DNA of 27,420 bases from a virus (Duplodnaviria; Caudoviricetes). The stretch is taken from the IMG/VR virus record IMGVR_UViG_3300027819_000047, positions 1 to 27,420 of that record. One strand, 5' to 3'. Of this stretch, positions 2,965-26,686 are shown piece after piece. Made by a program: the position numbers and the translations under genes. Numbering within the stretch: position 1 is the first letter of the stretch; each line of letters opens with the position of its first letter. The notes under the pieces are model-generated. The model ran no database searches. It saw only the letters and a program-made list of their open reading frames with translations, and was not told where the DNA came from.

Positions 2965-3270
2965 ACTGCGGCCCAGGGTGACTCGCCCCAGGCCGCGTAA
3001 TCCTGATTGCTCTGGCGGAGCGAATCAAGACCTTAGAAACAGTCTAAACGCAAACCACCGCCATAGTCAAGCAGGCGCTCAAGTCGTCGGGGACTCACCG
3101 GCAGGGCTTGAGGGATACCCCGAACTGTGGGCTAGGTCTGAGATACGGGGTAGGGTGGCGAAGGCAGCGCCCTTGACCGAACGGCTACCGGGTAAGCGCG
3201 GCTCCGAAGGGAACGTGTTTTGAAGGCGACCTAGTCATGGGCTGGCTAGGTTTCGCTCACCAAAGGGAAC
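2965..3270 (+). ncRNA. candidate structured RNA of unknown family
   Basis: Starts just after the promoter and contains a run of hairpins: 2968-73/2991-96, 3004-12/3018-27, 3033-37/3043-47, 3078-83/3107-12, 3116-22/3146-52, 3152-57/3168-73, 3229-37/3243-51. No convincing ORF. Confidence 0.55.
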
Positions 3271-7115: not shown

Positions 7116-7361
7116 CTAGCGTTCATTTTCGTGGACTAATGCATACAATGTGTTTTTCGTCTGCGCTAATCCAACGTCACGGCGCAACCATGTAACTGGC
7201 GAAGTATGGACATACTCGCCGTCTGGTACGTAGGGATGGTTGTAAACCGTGCCACTTAAATGAGTGCTGTGATCGGTCCAACCTTCAAGCCTCGGAAGTT
7301 TGGAAATATCATCCGGGACTTCTGAATCGACGGGTTTGACAATCACGGCCATGTTCATCAT
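7116..7361 (-). CDS. hypothetical protein (DUF6634-like)
   Basis: LEGW...LSGTVYNHP..PDGEYVHTSPV...TKNTLYAL pattern. Confidence 0.6.
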   Translation of the reverse strand: MMNMAVIVKPVDSEVPDDISKLPRLEGWTDHSTHLSGTVYNHPYVPDGEYVHTSPVTWLRRDVGLAQTKNTLYALVHENER

Positions 7362-8038
7362 TTCCCCTTCCGTTTCGCCGCACGTTCAAAATTACGCTCA
7401 TACTCAGATGGCGATTTGCTCGTTTTATATGGGCCACGTTTTTTTCCTAGACGAGCTGCGGCCATATTTGCCCGAGCTTCCGGGGTGTGTTTGTAACCAA
7501 GGCAATTCTTATTTCCAATTTTTACAATCGACATATTTATTCTAGCTTTGTCAGAATACCTGCCGCGTTTTCTTCCAATCTTCGCTGCTGAGTGATTTGC
7601 AAGATGTTCCGGGGAGAACGATTTGCCAAGGAGCGCGGAAGATATTTTCTTGCGCGCCTCGTCAGAATGACGATAACCCAAGCCGTTTTGATTTCCGCGC
7701 ATCGCATCAGCCATCATTGATCTATATTCAGCCGAACGAATTACTCCTTTGGGCGAACTGGAAGACAGATAGATATTGTAATCCGGAAGAAAGCCGTGGA
7801 TGCACCGCTGCTCTTGAAACAGCAATTGCTCCTTTGGGCACGGCAATATGATGCGGAAAATGAATGATCCCTCTCCGTGGTCACTCCAATCTTTCTGCAA
7901 TCTATGATTGGCGTGTCGAGCGCTCCTAAGCATGTGAAGATGTGTTCTCCATCTACCGGGACAGTCATTGGACGAGCCTATATACCGTTTCCCGTTCACG
8001 GTATTGAAAATCTCGTAGACTCCGCTTTGGTTGTTCAT
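7358..8038 (-). CDS. free-standing GIY-YIG homing endonuclease with NUMOD3-like repeats
   Basis: SGVYEIFNTVNGKRYIGSS catalytic motif; repeats such as GYRHSDEARKKIS and GYKHTPEARANMA. Confidence 0.9.
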   Translation of the reverse strand: MNNQSGVYEIFNTVNGKRYIGSSNDCPGRWRTHLHMLRSARHANHRLQKDWSDHGEGSFIFRIILPCPKEQLLFQEQRCIHGFLPDYNIYLSSSSPKGVIRSAEYRSMMADAMRGNQNGLGYRHSDEARKKISSALLGKSFSPEHLANHSAAKIGRKRGRYSDKARINMSIVKIGNKNCLGYKHTPEARANMAAARLGKKRGPYKTSKSPSEYERNFERAAKRKGK

Positions 8039-8599: not shown

Positions 8600-8704
8600 A
8601 TAGTGCGCTTGTGGTTGACGTGCGTCAATAGCGTCTGGAAACTGTTACACTATTTAGACTTATTCTATATTGACGAGTGACAACAGGTGGTATATATTGA
8701 TCGC
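8600..8704. promoter_or_regulatory. second divergent promoter region with palindromic operator candidates
   Basis: Rightward: TTGACG (8670-75), 17 bp, TATATT (8693-98). Weaker leftward: TTGACG (8628-23), 17 bp, CACTAT. Palindrome TTGACGtgCGTCAA at 8615-8628 and related TTGACGagTGACAA at 8670-8683 each cover a -35 box. Confidence 0.65.
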
Positions 8705-8878
8705 ATGATGTCCATAAATCAAGCTGCTGACAAGCTCAATTTGAGCCGGCAGCGAGTCCACATTCTCATTACGCAGGGGCGTATACCAGCGCAGCGCATC
8801 GGCCGGCAATGGATAGTATTGCGGGCAACGATTGGCAAAGCGCCGAAACGTAAACTGGTTGCAAAGGCGCGGGGATAG
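8705..8878 (+). CDS. HTH DNA-binding protein (excisionase/HTH_17-like), in the Cro position
   Basis: MSINQAADKLNLSRQRVHILITQGRIPAQRIGRQWIV winged-helix pattern. Confidence 0.85.
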   Translation: MMSINQAADKLNLSRQRVHILITQGRIPAQRIGRQWIVLRATIGKAPKRKLVAKARG

Positions 8879-13113: not shown

Positions 13114-13568
13114 AATTCACCATAGGTCACTCGAACGGTCGCACCAGAGCGATAGAAGCCATTCGCGGGGCTGAGATTGGAACGGTCATCGAGGTTGGCG
13201 TGGTTAGCAAGACGCGCGAGCAGGAGAGCCGCTATCATGCGATGCTTGGGGATATCGCGAACCAGTGGCTATTCTGCGGAAGAAAATGGGATCGCGAGGA
13301 CATGAAAAGGTTGTGTCTGGATCAATTCCGAAGGGATACCATCAAAGACCCTGATCTTGCTGAGTTGTGGAAAAACATGGGCCAAGTGGACATGGCGCCT
13401 AGCCTGGACGGCAGCGGAGTCGTGGCTTTGGGCATCCAGTCCAGACGCTTACCGAAGAAGCTCGCCACGGCTTTCGTGGAATGGTTGTTCGCGCTTGGCG
13501 CCGAGCATTCCGTGATCTGGTCAGACCCAACTATTCCGCCGGCGGACGTGTATGTCGAAAATCACTGA
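13110..13568 (+). CDS. ninB: NinB/Orf family recombination protein
   Basis: KTREQESRYHAMLGDIANQ...W..EDMK...PSLDGSGVVALG.QSRRL...FVEWLFALGAEHSVIW. Confidence 0.85.
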   Translation: MKFTIGHSNGRTRAIEAIRGAEIGTVIEVGVVSKTREQESRYHAMLGDIANQWLFCGRKWDREDMKRLCLDQFRRDTIKDPDLAELWKNMGQVDMAPSLDGSGVVALGIQSRRLPKKLATAFVEWLFALGAEHSVIWSDPTIPPADVYVENH

Positions 13569-13842
13569 ATCAGCGCGCGGCGAGGAATGCCAGATCAGGA
13601 TGCCAGGAATCTGCAATGGCAATCCTGAAACCGTTGTGTGGTGTCACGCCAACGGTAGCGCGGCCGGCAAAGGCATCGGCATGAAGTCGCCAGACCTGCT
13701 TGGCGCCTACGGATGCAGTTCATGCCACGATGAATATGATAGAAGAACGTCCAAGCTGGATCTGATCACGGCGAGGCTGTACTTCGCGGAAGGTCACTAT
13801 CGAAGTTTGGTGAAGCTGATCGAGAGGGGATTGGTTGGTTGA
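13552..13842 (+). CDS. DUF1364 / YbcO-like putative nuclease
   Basis: SARGEECQIRMPGICNGNPETVVWCH...GIGMKSPDLLGAYGCSSCHD. Confidence 0.88.
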   Translation: MSKITESARGEECQIRMPGICNGNPETVVWCHANGSAAGKGIGMKSPDLLGAYGCSSCHDEYDRRTSKLDLITARLYFAEGHYRSLVKLIERGLVG

Positions 13843-19452: not shown

Positions 19453-20139
19453 TTGCAAGCGAACTTGCAGCGCAAGGAAGCCCGCAGGGACAAGGACGTT
19501 TATTACTACGACTGTAGGGTAGAGGCTATCTACAGACCGTTCTACGGGTTCGACATCGAGTTTGACGCCCACTACCAAGCGGTTAAGCCTTACACGGATA
19601 TGTCAATCGAAAGGCTGTGGACGATCTATCTCATGGCCAAGCAGTCAATGAACATCCTTGGATGTTTCATGGAGTGCGGAGTTTTTAGGGGTGGAAGTGC
19701 CGCGCTGATTGCGAACGTGGTCAACAACAGAAAGCCGTTGCATCTGTTCGACACGTTTTCAGGTATGCCAGAGTGCGATTCGATTCGTGACGATCACGAG
19801 GCCGGAGACTTTTCGGAAGTCTCGATTGAACAGGTAAGGAAGGTTGTCGGGCATCAGGGCAGCGTTGATTTCCATCAGGGCTGGATTCCAGATACGTTTG
19901 TCGGCAAAGAAGCGGCAAGGATAGCTTTTGCCCACATCGACGTTGACATTTACCGGTCAATGAAAGACTGCCTGGAGTTTATCTACCCGAGAATGACTGT
20001 AGGTGGAGTGATAGTGCTGGACGACTACGGACAGTTTACGTGCAGGGGCGCAAGGGATGCGATTGACGAATACTTCGAGGACAAGAGATCAGTCCCGATG
20101 CCGCTGATGAGCAAGCAGGCTTTGGTGTTCAAGATATGA
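19453..20139 (+). CDS. TylF/MycF/NovP-family O-methyltransferase
   Basis: GCFMECGVFRGGS, LFDTFSGMP, GWIPDTF, FAHIDVDIYRS, GGVIVLDDYG, GARDAIDEYF. Confidence 0.92.
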   Translation: MQANLQRKEARRDKDVYYYDCRVEAIYRPFYGFDIEFDAHYQAVKPYTDMSIERLWTIYLMAKQSMNILGCFMECGVFRGGSAALIANVVNNRKPLHLFDTFSGMPECDSIRDDHEAGDFSEVSIEQVRKVVGHQGSVDFHQGWIPDTFVGKEAARIAFAHIDVDIYRSMKDCLEFIYPRMTVGGVIVLDDYGQFTCRGARDAIDEYFEDKRSVPMPLMSKQALVFKI

Positions 20140-20399
20140 GTGCGATCACCCATTCATCTGGTACACCGTCGTTCATGGCCCCGGCGCCGTCGTTCAGTTT
20201 TTTCGAGCAGGCGATTCAAGGGCAACTTGTAAACTTTGATGTATTCGATGAATTAGGCGGCGGTTGGTATCAATACCGAAGCGTTCAGATTGAACTCTAC
20301 GCGCCGGGATGGATTGGCGGGTATGACGACGACGATGTAGCGCACGCCGTCATCATGGCCAGAAAAGTTCCATATCAATTTGCGGGAGTGCGTTGGTGA
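20136..20399 (+). CDS. hypothetical protein
   Basis: 87-aa ORF coupled between the two methyltransferase genes. Confidence 0.6.
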   Translation: MSAITHSSGTPSFMAPAPSFSFFEQAIQGQLVNFDVFDELGGGWYQYRSVQIELYAPGWIGGYDDDDVAHAVIMARKVPYQFAGVRW

Positions 20400-21907
20400 C
20401 TGATTTTGCTGCGGCTGTTAAATTCGACTTGCTCCCATTCATAAATGGAGAGGGCCTTGATATCGGATGTGGAGATTTCAGGCCATGGGATTGGCCGGTA
20501 GGCATAGATATAAAGGCCGGCACTACGGCGCGCGGCCCGAATCAGATACGTGATGCCCGACAACTTGACGGATACTTTGCAGCAGAATCTCAAGACTTCA
20601 TATTTTCGAGCTACCTGCTGAACGAGCTTGAAGAGTGGTCCTCGGTACTGTCGGGCTGGTGGAAGCTCATCAAGCCGAACGGTTACCTGATTTTGTTTAT
20701 GCCGCTCGTCGAAGCAGCGGCGGCAGATGGAGACAAGCCTGCCGTCAAAGCATGCACGCCGCAGATGGTTGTCGATGCGATGGCGGGTTGTAGACCGTGG
20801 CAGTTTGTCGAAGCAAAGGTAAGCGCAGGATCATTTTTCCATGTGTACCGCAAATGCGATACGCCGACCGTGCTTGAGGTTCCAGACCCGGAGAAAATCT
20901 GCGCGGTGCTGAAATTAGGCGCGCATGGTGATGCGTTGTGGGCGTCCAGTGTGTTACCCCATCTGAAAGAACAGGGGTATTACACGATTCTCTACACGCA
21001 GGACACGGGCGAAGAAGTGTTGAGACACGATCCTCATATCGACAGGCTGATCAAGTTTGAAAGTCGTGTCCCTATGGGGGAATTGGGAAACCTGTTCGCG
21101 TGGCTGGAAAAGAAGTACCACAATTCGAGGATTCTGGTCGAATGCGTTGAAGGAACTCTTCTACCAAGTCCGCAGAAAATTCAGTATTGGTTCCCGCCCG
21201 ACATGCGCGACATGTTGATGAACTTCAACTACGTCGAAATGCACCATCGCCGGGCTTTGGTACCCTTGGAACCACGGGTAAAGTTCTACCCGAACGAGGA
21301 AGAAAAGCGTTGGGCGAACAAGATGCGCTCTGAAATGACGGAACGGGTTGTCGTGGTTGTTCCAAATGGTTCCAGCGTGTCGAAGATGTGGCCTTACACG
21401 GCGGAATTCTGCGAACGGCTGTTGAAGCGCAAGGACGTGACGGTCGTAATGCTTGGTGATGAACGGGGAATGGACTTTTCTGCCTTGGACGATCACAAGC
21501 GTTTCAGGAAGATCGGCATGAGTTGGAATATCAGGCAAGCTATGACGTTTGTCCAACTGGCTGATGTGGTGATGGGGCAGGAGACTGGGTTACTCAATGC
21601 GGTATCGCACGAACCCGCTGTGCATAAAATCGTGTTGCTCAGTCATTCGTCGGAACAAAATCTTACCCGTGACTGGCCGAACACTGTAGCGATCAGGACA
21701 TACCCGGAATGCGCTGGAAAGTCGGGATGTCACCGGCTCCAATACGATTGGAGCACTTGCAACAAGGATGAGGCGACCGGTGCTGCCAAGTGTCAGGCGA
21801 TGATACCGTGCGATCAGGTGCTGGATTACGTCAACACGGCGTTGGATGTGAATACCGAGCCAGAAATCGTGGCTCCAGAACAGCAGCGGTTACACGCTGT
21901 AGGATAG
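20393..21907 (+). CDS. class I SAM methyltransferase fused to a GT9 (heptosyltransferase-like) glycosyltransferase
   Basis: N-terminus: GLDIGCG, DFIFSSYLL, WWKLIKPNGYLILFMP. C-terminus: LGAHGDALWASSVLPHLK, HDPHID, SKMWPY, ADVVMGQETGLLNAV, and a C..GCH..C..C Cys cluster. Confidence 0.85.
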   Translation: MVTDFAAAVKFDLLPFINGEGLDIGCGDFRPWDWPVGIDIKAGTTARGPNQIRDARQLDGYFAAESQDFIFSSYLLNELEEWSSVLSGWWKLIKPNGYLILFMPLVEAAAADGDKPAVKACTPQMVVDAMAGCRPWQFVEAKVSAGSFFHVYRKCDTPTVLEVPDPEKICAVLKLGAHGDALWASSVLPHLKEQGYYTILYTQDTGEEVLRHDPHIDRLIKFESRVPMGELGNLFAWLEKKYHNSRILVECVEGTLLPSPQKIQYWFPPDMRDMLMNFNYVEMHHRRALVPLEPRVKFYPNEEEKRWANKMRSEMTERVVVVVPNGSSVSKMWPYTAEFCERLLKRKDVTVVMLGDERGMDFSALDDHKRFRKIGMSWNIRQAMTFVQLADVVMGQETGLLNAVSHEPAVHKIVLLSHSSEQNLTRDWPNTVAIRTYPECAGKSGCHRLQYDWSTCNKDEATGAAKCQAMIPCDQVLDYVNTALDVNTEPEIVAPEQQRLHAVG

Positions 21908-21911
21908 ATAT

Positions 21912-21986
21912 CGCGGATTGGCGCAGCAGTAGCGCGGGTGGCTCATAACCATCAGGTCATCGGTGCAATTCCGATATCCGCAACCA
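21912..21986 (+). tRNA. tRNA-Met(CAT), initiator type
   Basis: Cloverleaf: acceptor CGCGGAT/ATCCGCA with a C1:A72 mismatch, D stem GCGC/GCGC, anticodon arm GGTGG-CTCATAA-CCATC, T arm ATCGG-TGCAATT-CCGAT, encoded ACCA end. Confidence 0.92.
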
Positions 21987-23938: not shown

Positions 23939-24300
23939 ATGGCTACTACCAATATCCCCTATGGGTCAGCACTGGCCCGCAAGGTATTTGGTGCCGCCTT
24001 GTTTGCCGCCGTTCAAGTCAAGCCGGGTTTCATGAACCTGTTGACAGGACCGGCGCCCAAACAAGCCGAGGCGGAGTCGAAGCTGAAAGGCCAGACTTCC
24101 GCCGATTACCCGATCGTTCGTGTAACAGACCTGTCAAAAGGTGCTGGCGCGAGCGTGTCGGTGGACTTGTTCAACAATCTGAACGGCAAACCTACGATGG
24201 GTGACAAGCGCATCGCTGGCCGTCTGATGGGGTTGGATTACTCGTCGATGGACGTGCAGATCAATCAGTATCGCGGTGGAGCGGACGCAGGTGGAAGGAT
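23939..24300 (+). CDS. major capsid protein (N4-gp56/DUF4043 type), exon 1
   Basis: TAAGGAG RBS; PIVRVTDLSKGAGASVSVDLF...KPTMGDKRIAGR...INQYRGGADAGGR, ending with the AT of a split ATG codon. Confidence 0.9.
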
Positions 24301-25281
24301 TTATTGCTAAGTCCCCCGCTACGGAAACGTAGTGGTGTAAACTAGGTGAATTGCTGGGAAACCCTTAGAGCCTTAAGTGCTACAGCGTGGTCTGTAAAGA
24401 CGTGCGCGAATGCTTGAAAAACTTAGGATTGGGCAATCAGCAGGGAAGCCTCAAGAAATGCAACAGGTAGAATTACATGGCATCCATCGAAGTTATTCGA
24501 GGGGATGCAGGTGTGACGAATGTCGCGAAGGTGAGCGGCAATATCGCTCACACCTAAGGCTGATAACTGATTTCGACGCCCCGGAGTACAATCACGGGGA
24601 ACGACGCGGTTATCGGATGGGTTGTAGATGTGACGCTTGCAGAGAAGCAAACAATGCATACGACAAGTCGCTTACCGAACGGCGCGACTTGACGGCTCCC
24701 GACTTTCCTCATGGAACCAGTGTTGGGGTTAGGCGCGGGTGCAGATGCAATGTTTGTCTTGATGCAAAACGCAAGACCGAACGAGACAGGAAGCGGAATA
24801 GACGTGCTTCAGACTCAGAGTATGCGGATAGATTGCGCGCTCAGGGTCGCAAAAACATGTCGAAACCGAGGGCCAAAAAACTACACGTGGCGGCAGTAAC
24901 AAAGCGCAATGTTTTAAAGCGTGCCACCATCGTAGACGAGGCGCTGATAAAGCGAATCTATTTGGCTACTCCTGAAGGCTATACGGTCGATCACATCAAG
25001 CCGCTCGCAAGAGGCGGCGCACACAGCCCTGAGAATTTGCAGTATCTACCTGGTGCCATTAATACCGCAAAACATGCGCGGATTGATTACGATGTTTCAA
25101 AACATGTAATCAGATGGCAGGACGTTCTTGAGGAACCTTCAACGACTATCCCGCAAGGGAGTAGGCTGCAAGTGCAGCCGAAGTGCCTAGCCCCTGAAAT
25201 GGGGATGATATAGTCTGTTCTAGGGCGAAATCCCTAGCAGCGAAAGCGGGTTGGAAGTAACGAATCCAACCGAACAAAAAG
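24301..25281 (+). mobile_element. group I intron (IA2-like, 981 nt) in the major capsid gene
   Basis: P1 GGAU^UUA/UAAGUCC with a U.G pair at the splice site; P2 GAAA hairpin; P3 24342-47/25185-90; P4 24351-56/24438-43; P6a 24449-57/25125-33; P7 GACUA 25144-48/UAGUC 25211-15; P7.1, P7.2, P8 and P9-P9.2 hairpins; terminal G at 25281. Removal restores the reading frame. Confidence 0.93.
24458..25213 (+). CDS. intron-encoded HNH homing endonuclease with three HG..GCRC..C repeats
   Basis: YTVDHIKPLARGGAHSPENLQYLPGAINTAKH HNH motif; ATG at 24458 sits at the edge of the P6a stem. Confidence 0.87.
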   Translation: MQQVELHGIHRSYSRGCRCDECREGERQYRSHLRLITDFDAPEYNHGERRGYRMGCRCDACREANNAYDKSLTERRDLTAPDFPHGTSVGVRRGCRCNVCLDAKRKTERDRKRNRRASDSEYADRLRAQGRKNMSKPRAKKLHVAAVTKRNVLKRATIVDEALIKRIYLATPEGYTVDHIKPLARGGAHSPENLQYLPGAINTAKHARIDYDVSKHVIRWQDVLEEPSTTIPQGSRLQVQPKCLAPEMGMI

Positions 25282-26191
25282 GACGCAACAACGCACCGTC
25301 TGGAATCTTCGCGGTATTGCGATGGCAAGCCTTGCGAACTGGTCGGGCCGTCTTGAGGATCAACTGGCGCTGGTGCATCTTGCTGGAGCCCGTGGTACTC
25401 AGAACAATTCCGACTGGGTTATCCCGCTGGCATCAGACTCCGATTTCGCGACCATCATGGTCAATTCGGTTGTCGCACCAACGGCAAACCGCAAGTTCTA
25501 CGCCAACGACGCGACTCTCCCGAGCAATCTGGACACGAGCGACATTCTGACCTTGACCGACTTTGACCGCATCGCGAGCGTATTGAAAGACGCGCTTGTG
25601 CCTATGCAGTCGATCCAGATCAAGGGCGACGTGTATGCGTGGAACGATCCGCTGTGGGTGGCGTTCGTCACGAACCGGCAATGGCTGTATCTGCAAACCC
25701 GGACTGGTGAAAAAGGCTGGCGCTCATTCCTGCAAAACGCTTATGAACGGCGTGCGAACGGGATGAGGCATCCGTTGTTCTACGGAGATGTGGGCATGTG
25801 GGCGGGAATCTTGATCCGTCCGATGAACCGCCTCGCCATTCGTTTTGCGGCAGGAGACACTGTTGCATACGACAGCGGAACGACTTCGTTCAGTTCCAGC
25901 AACGCGACCGCTTCGGTTGCAACTGACCGCGCCATTATTGTCGGCGCTCAGGCCCTTCTGAAATGCTACGGGCAGCATCAGGGTAGTGAATACTACTACT
26001 CGTGGCACGAGGAAAAGGTCGATCACGGCAACGCGATTGAAACATCGGTCGCGATGATGGGCGGCGTTGCTAAAACGCGGTTCACCGTGTCGGATGGAAC
26101 GAATGGAATTTCGACCGACTACGGCGTTGCAGTCTGTGACAGTTATGCTCCGGACCCAACCTCGGCGGCTGGTAAAGCGCTTCTGGTCTAA
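25282..26191 (+). CDS. major capsid protein, exon 2
   Basis: G + ACG CAA CAA CGC... gives (M)TQQRTVWNLRGIAMASLANWSGRLEDQLALVHLAGARG; later HPLFYGDVGMWAGILI, DRAIIVGAQAL, WHEEKVDHGN and DYGVAVCDS. Spliced CDS is 1272 nt (423 aa). Confidence 0.9.
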
Positions 26192-26657: not shown

Positions 26658-26686
26658 TGCCGGGGGAGAAATCCTCCGGCATTTTT
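26658..26686 (+). terminator. intrinsic terminator after the capsid and cement genes
   Basis: TGCCGGGGGA-gaaa-TCCTCCGGCA followed by TTTTT. Confidence 0.8.

Follow-up and report, generated by a model that had tools for sequence, protein, structure and literature searches.

The split capsid gene

Three open reading frames of 123 aa (23939-24310), 267 aa (24410-25213) and 289 aa (25322-26191) were listed on the plus strand over the capsid region of the window, a viral contig of 27,420 nt that is 43% complete by tool estimate. With both PF13252 and PHROG 334, the first and the last of these frames align to successive stretches of the capsid profile. Exon 1 (23939-24300; 362 nt, 3' end U) begins with codon 1 and ends after the second base of the Met121 codon, matches PF13252 over 1-99 and PHROG 334 over 1-104, and is identical to the uninterrupted homolog P0001 in 119 of 120 residues. 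Exon 2 (25282-26191; 910 nt) matches the same profiles over 102-375 and 106-379 with 97% identity to P0001. Each exon alone passed PF13252 (71.6 and 219.5 against a cutoff of 23). For TIGR04387, P0001 (98% identical) reached 76.8 against a cutoff of 60, and the single exons stayed below it with 23.6 and 38.2. Judged by these profiles, the split gene, the only capsid gene of the contig, is an N4-gp56-like major capsid gene (TIGR04387 / PF13252 / PHROG 334).

Excision of 24301-25281 by script gave one frame of 423 aa with zero internal stops and the codon of Met121 split as AT|G, reproducing exactly the exon and intron boundaries and the joined protein of a preliminary description of this DNA. 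The joined protein and P0001 are identical in 414 of 423 positions. Among the 120 homologs listed of 823 found, all 116 full-length sequences were gap-free across the junction, which bears out the expected colinearity with uninterrupted capsids, and 115 of the 116 had Met at the junction column. The junction is unambiguous, because a one-base slide would alter the Met codon. In the precursor, the reading frame from exon 1 ends at TAA 24308-24310, the stop previously read there. The first in-frame ATG of exon 2 lies at 25322; a start at this position would omit 13 residues, including five that never vary among 45 homologs, so the full-length capsid protein requires the join and its dependence on splicing was rightly proposed. 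Automated annotation breaks the gene as foreseen: P0253 of a public collection is exactly the 289-aa exon-2 frame.

Two other classes of intervening elements were rejected. Group II introns start with GUGYG and end with AY; the ends of the insert differ from these motifs, and the Rfam group II families gave no match. An intein was ruled out by the in-frame TAA 8 nt into the insert.

The contig carries, in this order, a replication/recombination block (RecE-like exonuclease, RusA, NinB, replication initiator, helicase), the small and large terminase, a P22-like portal and the head genes. A Betaproteobacteria-1 RNA (3076-3193, plus strand, 98.8 bits) hints at the host group. An excisionase-family DNA-binding frame (8687-8875, plus strand; TIGR01764 above cutoff) near the switch in gene direction is a hint of a temperate phage; no integrase was identified among the open reading frames scanned in the window. 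Further mobile or accessory elements are a free-standing GIY-YIG/NUMOD3 homing endonuclease gene (7358-8038, minus strand), a small HNH gene (13552-13842, plus strand) and, between portal and head genes, TylF-like and other methyltransferase genes (19453-21986, plus strand) together with a tRNA with CAU anticodon (21912-21986, plus strand). A strong hairpin resembling an intrinsic terminator (26658-26681, plus strand) stands after the gene that follows the capsid gene, and the promoter scan of the plus strand gave no sigma-70-like site. The 13 runs listed include no RNA datasets and have no bearing on expression.

Structure and covariation of the intron RNA

The 981-nt insert (24301-25281, plus strand, last base G) is missing from the uninterrupted homologs and, by its helices and their covariation, is a group I intron in a major capsid gene, with an IA2-like layout. 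All named helices P1 to P10 pair fully in the window sequence. P1 (24297-24303/24308-24314) places U24300.G24311 at the 5' splice site and contains the in-frame TAA. P10, previously regarded as possible, was drawn between 24304-24307 and exon 2 at 25285-25288 and does pair. The P2 hairpin with a GAAA loop (24316-24335) has changes on both sides in four of its eight pairs. The 5' core (24342-24455) contains the 5' strand of P3 (24342-48), P4 (24351-56/24438-43), P5 (24362-64/24431-33) with a P5a extension, and the 5' strands of P6 (24444-45) and P6a (24449-55). The 3' core (25127-25215) is built from the 3' strands of P6a (25127-33) and P6 (25136-37), P7 (25144-48/25211-15), P7.1 (25150-59), P7.2 (25164-79), the 3' strand of P3 (25184-90) and P8 (25191-94/25201-04). 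The 3' end (25216-25281) holds P9.0 (25216-20/25272-76), P9 (25220-37), P9.1 (25240-47, two pairs), P9.2 (25249-71) and the terminal G25281 before the 3' splice site, a G that is also present in two further introns described below.

The guanosine site of group I introns is a G-C pair in P7 adjoining a bulged base; here it is predicted at G25144-C25215 with the bulged C25143. The phage-type subgroup IA2 is defined by the hairpins P7.1 and P7.2, which lie between P7 and P3. Both are present, with compensation on both sides in one of three and three of six pairs, respectively; one study describes the IA2 subgroup as heterogeneous (PMC11878797). Without the open reading frame, the core had a folding z of -4.6 and none of 200 shuffles was equally stable.

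Rfam RF00028 gave no match at its gathering threshold and 20.4 bits below it (E 0.015, cutoff 50). The alignment spans 24291-25237 with the P, Q and S elements aligned, P and Q falling on the 5' core, the open reading frame as a long insert and P7 misplaced. Incompleteness of the Rfam group I model and partial matches of cores split by open reading frames have been described (PMC11878797). A covariance model built from the 3' cores of 22 other introns scored the window with 69.3 bits (E 4e-13), though it is not an independent test, because its introns were selected with motifs similar to those of the window; the same model gave 68.8 bits for L025, 57.6 bits for L020 and zero matches in the intron-free allele L001.

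Introns at the identical phosphodiester were found in two unrelated assemblies, L020 (1026 nt) and L025 (1030 nt), whose capsid genes are about 51% identical to that of the window. In both, the exon joins restore full frames and orthologous HNH frames lie in P6a. Across the three same-site introns, 98.1% of 105 cells of the 3' half pair, with changes on both sides in 12 of 35 pairs; for the 5' half the values are 94.0% of 83 cells and eight of 28 pairs. In the shuffle control 0 of 500 reached the values of either half, and slid controls paired at most to 46%; the shuffle controls overstate the covariation, because only three related sequences are compared and the structure was drawn from the window itself. 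Compensatory changes include two in L025 within the long-range P3, whose strands are 840 nt apart, and two in L020 within P6, while five of seven P9.2 pairs changed on both sides. Unpaired in the alignment were two P8 cells and several P5a cells. The four exon pairs of P1 are identical in all three introns and the U.G pair is kept in 3/3; P10 can be formed in each of them with a different sequence. The group I core claimed in the preliminary description was confirmed, its helices pairing at the stated places.

Searches with a pattern of the 3' end returned 20 viral loci, three of them in the capsid family of the window (L022, which is its own copy, L025 and L034) and 17 without a capsid match. 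In metagenomes 11 loci were obtained, with a capsid only in L126, which has the same length and sequence as the window, and none of seven loci from genomes had a capsid. With a 5'-end pattern, applied to 26 of the 64 parts into which the viral collection is divided, 120 loci were obtained, none of them a further same-site allele. A C-terminal capsid fragment (P0028) and an HNH protein (P0131, 65% identical to that of the window) both come from a Logan contig of 59,190 nt, apparently one and the same, and by this shared length probably represent a fourth same-site intron. The cluster of P0028 also has a full-length member of 422 aa.

The intron-encoded HNH endonuclease

The preliminary description placed a full group I core within the 981 nt. 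Most of the insert is an HNH endonuclease gene (24458-25213, plus strand; 251 aa) that had been missed. The gene fills the 671-nt loop of P6a. Its start at 24458 was inferred from the two orthologs, which both begin at the matching position; the alternative start at 24410 gives 267 aa. In the 251-aa frame, a long helical linker connects three HG-x-C[RK]CxxC repeats to the HNH domain that follows (model pLDDT 90, pTM 0.56). The HNH domain scored 22.4 bits with Pfam PF01844 (cutoff 21.4), and 55 homologs all share D178, H179, N193 and N202, the last ligand being N, not H. Structurally, the C-terminal domain comes closest to PacI, an HNH-type enzyme, a weak match (Z 5.2, rmsd 2.8, 79 residues) followed by the likewise weak Cas9 HNH domains. 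Foldseek gave no match in the PDB at E<=0.001, Cys repeats included. The N-terminal Cys repeats matched no named family and the Atlas returned unnamed viral clusters only; the wide structural search barely covered residues 1-83. The Cys spacing suggests that the repeats bind zinc.

The last ~87 nt of the frame traverse P6a, P6, P7, P7.1, P7.2, P3 and P8, and its stop codon falls within the S element; the HNH frames of the three same-site introns all end at or just before this element. None of these three frames is broken, they share about 43% identity, and each has retained the catalytic residues. A profile search yielded 434 relatives, of which 120 were listed. The best 55 each have one to four Cys repeats, and every one of them ends in a translated intron core, compared with two of the 65 other listed proteins; 48 of the 55 were recognised with the first pattern for this read-through and all 55 after the pattern had been widened on seeing the misses. 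The top 55 relatives would accordingly be expected to sit in introns. No description of a CXCXXC intron endonuclease was found in the literature searched, main texts with few subscription journals among them, and the intron-borne HNH proteins with Cys repeats are apparently an undescribed family.

Distribution of the intron

Three of 73 distinct capsid coding sequences have the intron and 70 are without it, counts from a sampling that favours uninterrupted genes on one side and pattern matches on the other. In a quick tree, every allele with the intron has an intron-free sister (L001 for the window, L097 for L020, L095 for L025; SH-aLRT 99-100), and a single clade of the three intron alleles was rejected with p-AU 6.5e-9 in a quick tree of 19 chosen rows. 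The intron-free sister of the window is 98% identical. On these trees the patchy distribution fits homing and horizontal spread; repeated loss would fit too. Intron-free DNA was also seen in the runs X5 and X7, each with one contig from a relative that is continuous across the site. In the runs X3 and X4, short pieces were identical to the far flanks and differed near the site, but the intron had no coverage and no contig bridged the site, so that these pieces carry no weight here.

The insertion site lies in a highly conserved stretch of the gene (rank 16 of 413 windows). The flanks GGAT before and GACG after the site, which are those used by P1 and P10, occur in 3/3 intron alleles compared with 4/68 intron-free alleles. 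Between the window and L001, the density of silent differences is higher at the site (8/17 against 69/397, p 0.006), a co-conversion signal found in one of the three sister pairs and absent in L020/L097 and L025/L095; the capsid gene has other clusters of differences. L097 has a P1-compatible flank and, two codons past the site, Arg for the usual Gln, which could be an altered target or the trace of a past intron loss.

Comparison with known introns

A close known design is that of T4 td with I-TevI, a phage group I intron with the endonuclease frame in the P6/P6a loop and the frame's 3' end contributing to P6a and P7 (PMC3073962, PMC2988022). The differences in these sources are the host gene, thymidylate synthase in td, the GIY-YIG enzyme, and the overlap of frame and core, which is 20 nt in td against ~87 nt in the window; the largest overlap in Table 1 of that paper is 81 nt (PMC3073962, PMC2988022). 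For td/I-TevI, the same sources describe endonuclease translation and core folding as mutually exclusive (PMC2988022, PMC3073962). An intron-encoded phage HNH homing endonuclease, like the one predicted here, is gp210 of PhiPA3, for which interference with a co-infecting phage was shown (PMC11620839); unlike in the window, the PhiPA3 intron sits in an RNA polymerase gene (PMC11878797).

Introns in capsid genes are not the rarity implied by the preliminary description. In mycobacteriophage LittleE, a major capsid gene intron is described with U|...G boundaries, an endonuclease frame inside and intron-free relatives, and its splicing in vivo was shown by RT-PCR and by N-terminal protein sequencing across the junction (PMC3706429). 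Unlike the window, LittleE has a siphovirus capsid of another family and a frame on the opposite strand in an 819-bp intron that was termed only 'most likely' group I in that text (PMC3706429). Group I introns in the major capsid gene are also given for crAss-like Delta/Zeta phages (PMC7886860) and for Lactococcus phage Tuc2009 (named in PMC3706429 and PMC2504315). These belong to other capsid families and hosts, with up to several introns per gene, and are likened here by their published description (PMC7886860, PMC3706429, PMC2504315).

The core itself is 77-81% identical over matched pieces to introns in nrdB of Pseudomonas phage KIL1 (KU130126, annotated as joined CDS) and in the capsid gene of Vibrio phage 1.232.O (MG592596, unannotated). 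Both have other insertion sites, and unlike in the window neither record lists an intron frame. In the literature searched, main texts with few subscription journals among them, no publication was found that reports an intron within a gene of the N4-gp56 family; the insertion site may be new for this capsid family.

A recognisable group I core was present in 20 of the 120 loci obtained with the 5'-end pattern, some of them duplicates and two of the window's family. Among 11 tested flanking frames beside other group I cores, nine were major head proteins of other families. Group I cores adjoin major head protein frames of several other PHROG families in L140, L146, L147, L171, L177, L203, L205, L229 and L252. 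Seven cores lie within ~2.7 kb in L181 and four each in L169 and L180; the exon peptides of these three loci resemble the major head protein of L147 (PHROG 1005). The unannotated intron of the cultured Vibrio phage 1.232.O (L259:1158-1470) is a 313-nt group I intron without a frame near the end of the major capsid gene. It has U|...G ends, its excision gives a 317-aa frame, and a free-standing HNH gene follows at 1609-2094. The annotation of Escherichia phage W70 (L260, OP778610) lists separate primase/helicase, HNH and hypothetical genes in place of what seems to be a single gene interrupted by a group I intron that carries an HNH; another group I core, without a frame, is located upstream.

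Probable splicing and homing, and alternative explanations

Group I introns splice by two transesterifications that depend on the G site of P7, the U.G pair in P1, the terminal G and P10. Since the insert at Met121 has all group I pairings and an intact HNH gene, we consider it likely that its RNA self-splices before capsid synthesis, yielding the 423-aa capsid protein, and that homing, started by nuclease cuts in capsid genes that lack the intron, copies the intron into them. An external G would attack after U24300, the terminal G25281 would then occupy the guanosine site in P7, and P10 would bring exon 2 into line for the ligation step. Translation of the precursor from exon 1 would end in P1, in the window at its TAA; in-frame stops occur 8, 11 and 23 nt into the three same-site introns. 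The likely ribosome-binding bases of the endonuclease would be located in P4/P6. As these bases and the last 87 nt of the frame belong to the core, one RNA would either fold and splice or be translated for the nuclease, as described for td. In mixed infections the nuclease would nick or cut the intron-free capsid gene, and repair would copy the intron in. The presence of the intron is explained by the endonuclease frame carried inside, and the most fitting view of the intron is that of a selfish element close to neutral, a passenger and not a regulator of capsid output.

Among the alternatives, an intron that splices while its HNH frame no longer homes, being a remnant or having another role such as an aid in RNA folding, is unlikely. 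The PF01844 score barely above its cutoff, the N-terminal repeats outside of any named family and the weak co-conversion signal would agree with such a loss. However, a frame intact in three introns at this level of divergence, with the catalytic residues conserved, and the patchy occurrence of the intron across distant capsid clades argue against it.

Somewhat less probable still is the proposal, going back to the preliminary description, that capsid production is timed or capped by splicing as a regulated, rate-limiting step. The requirement of splicing for the full-length protein speaks for it. The design could in principle be sensitive, given a frame that runs through the core and the lower td splicing that follows when I-TevI is translated at the wrong time (PMC2988022). 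Yet the near-identical sister and 70 distinct full-length relatives manage without the intron, no regulatory element was seen, a homing endonuclease is carried, and the LittleE authors presumed extremely efficient splicing for a capsid protein of 775 copies (PMC3706429). The proposal thus found no support, and the self-splicing, mobile passenger is the preferred reading.

A dead intron in a broken capsid gene of a defective phage or prophage would be compatible with a contig that is only a fragment, but it is very improbable in view of a core, frame and exons free of lesions, a joined protein with just nine differences to P0001 and a contig without another capsid gene. An assembly chimera is already close to refuted: the two runs in which all of the stretch is present, both groundwater metagenomes, could themselves be where the window came from, but a contig of 5063 nt crosses both intron junctions with no differences, and orthologous introns occupy the same phosphodiester in the two unrelated assemblies.

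A wider reading of the endonuclease is put forward tentatively, as a possibility. The Cys-repeat proteins could form an undescribed, intron-dedicated HNH family built of one to four HG-x-C[RK]CxxC modules, probably zinc-binding DNA readers, that always reside in P6a and read through the ribozyme core. The member in the window would target the highly conserved stretch in capsid genes of the N4-gp56-like type whose proteins diverge by ~50%, with the result that phages with the intron might cut the capsid gene of co-infecting relatives in a capsid-directed interference competition, and the modular array could be retargeted.

The locus is a clean case of a mobile intron in the gene for the most abundant virion protein. 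The mobile intron as such does not change the known picture of phage introns, because capsid-gene cases have already been published. Capsid-gene introns are undercounted, since gene callers deposit the 289-aa fragment and the Rfam gathering threshold misses the intron. Splicing and homing are directly testable at this locus, as near-identical intron-free alleles are at hand. Most worth the attention of specialists is the HNH family with Cys repeats, which may represent a new set of modular site-specific nucleases.
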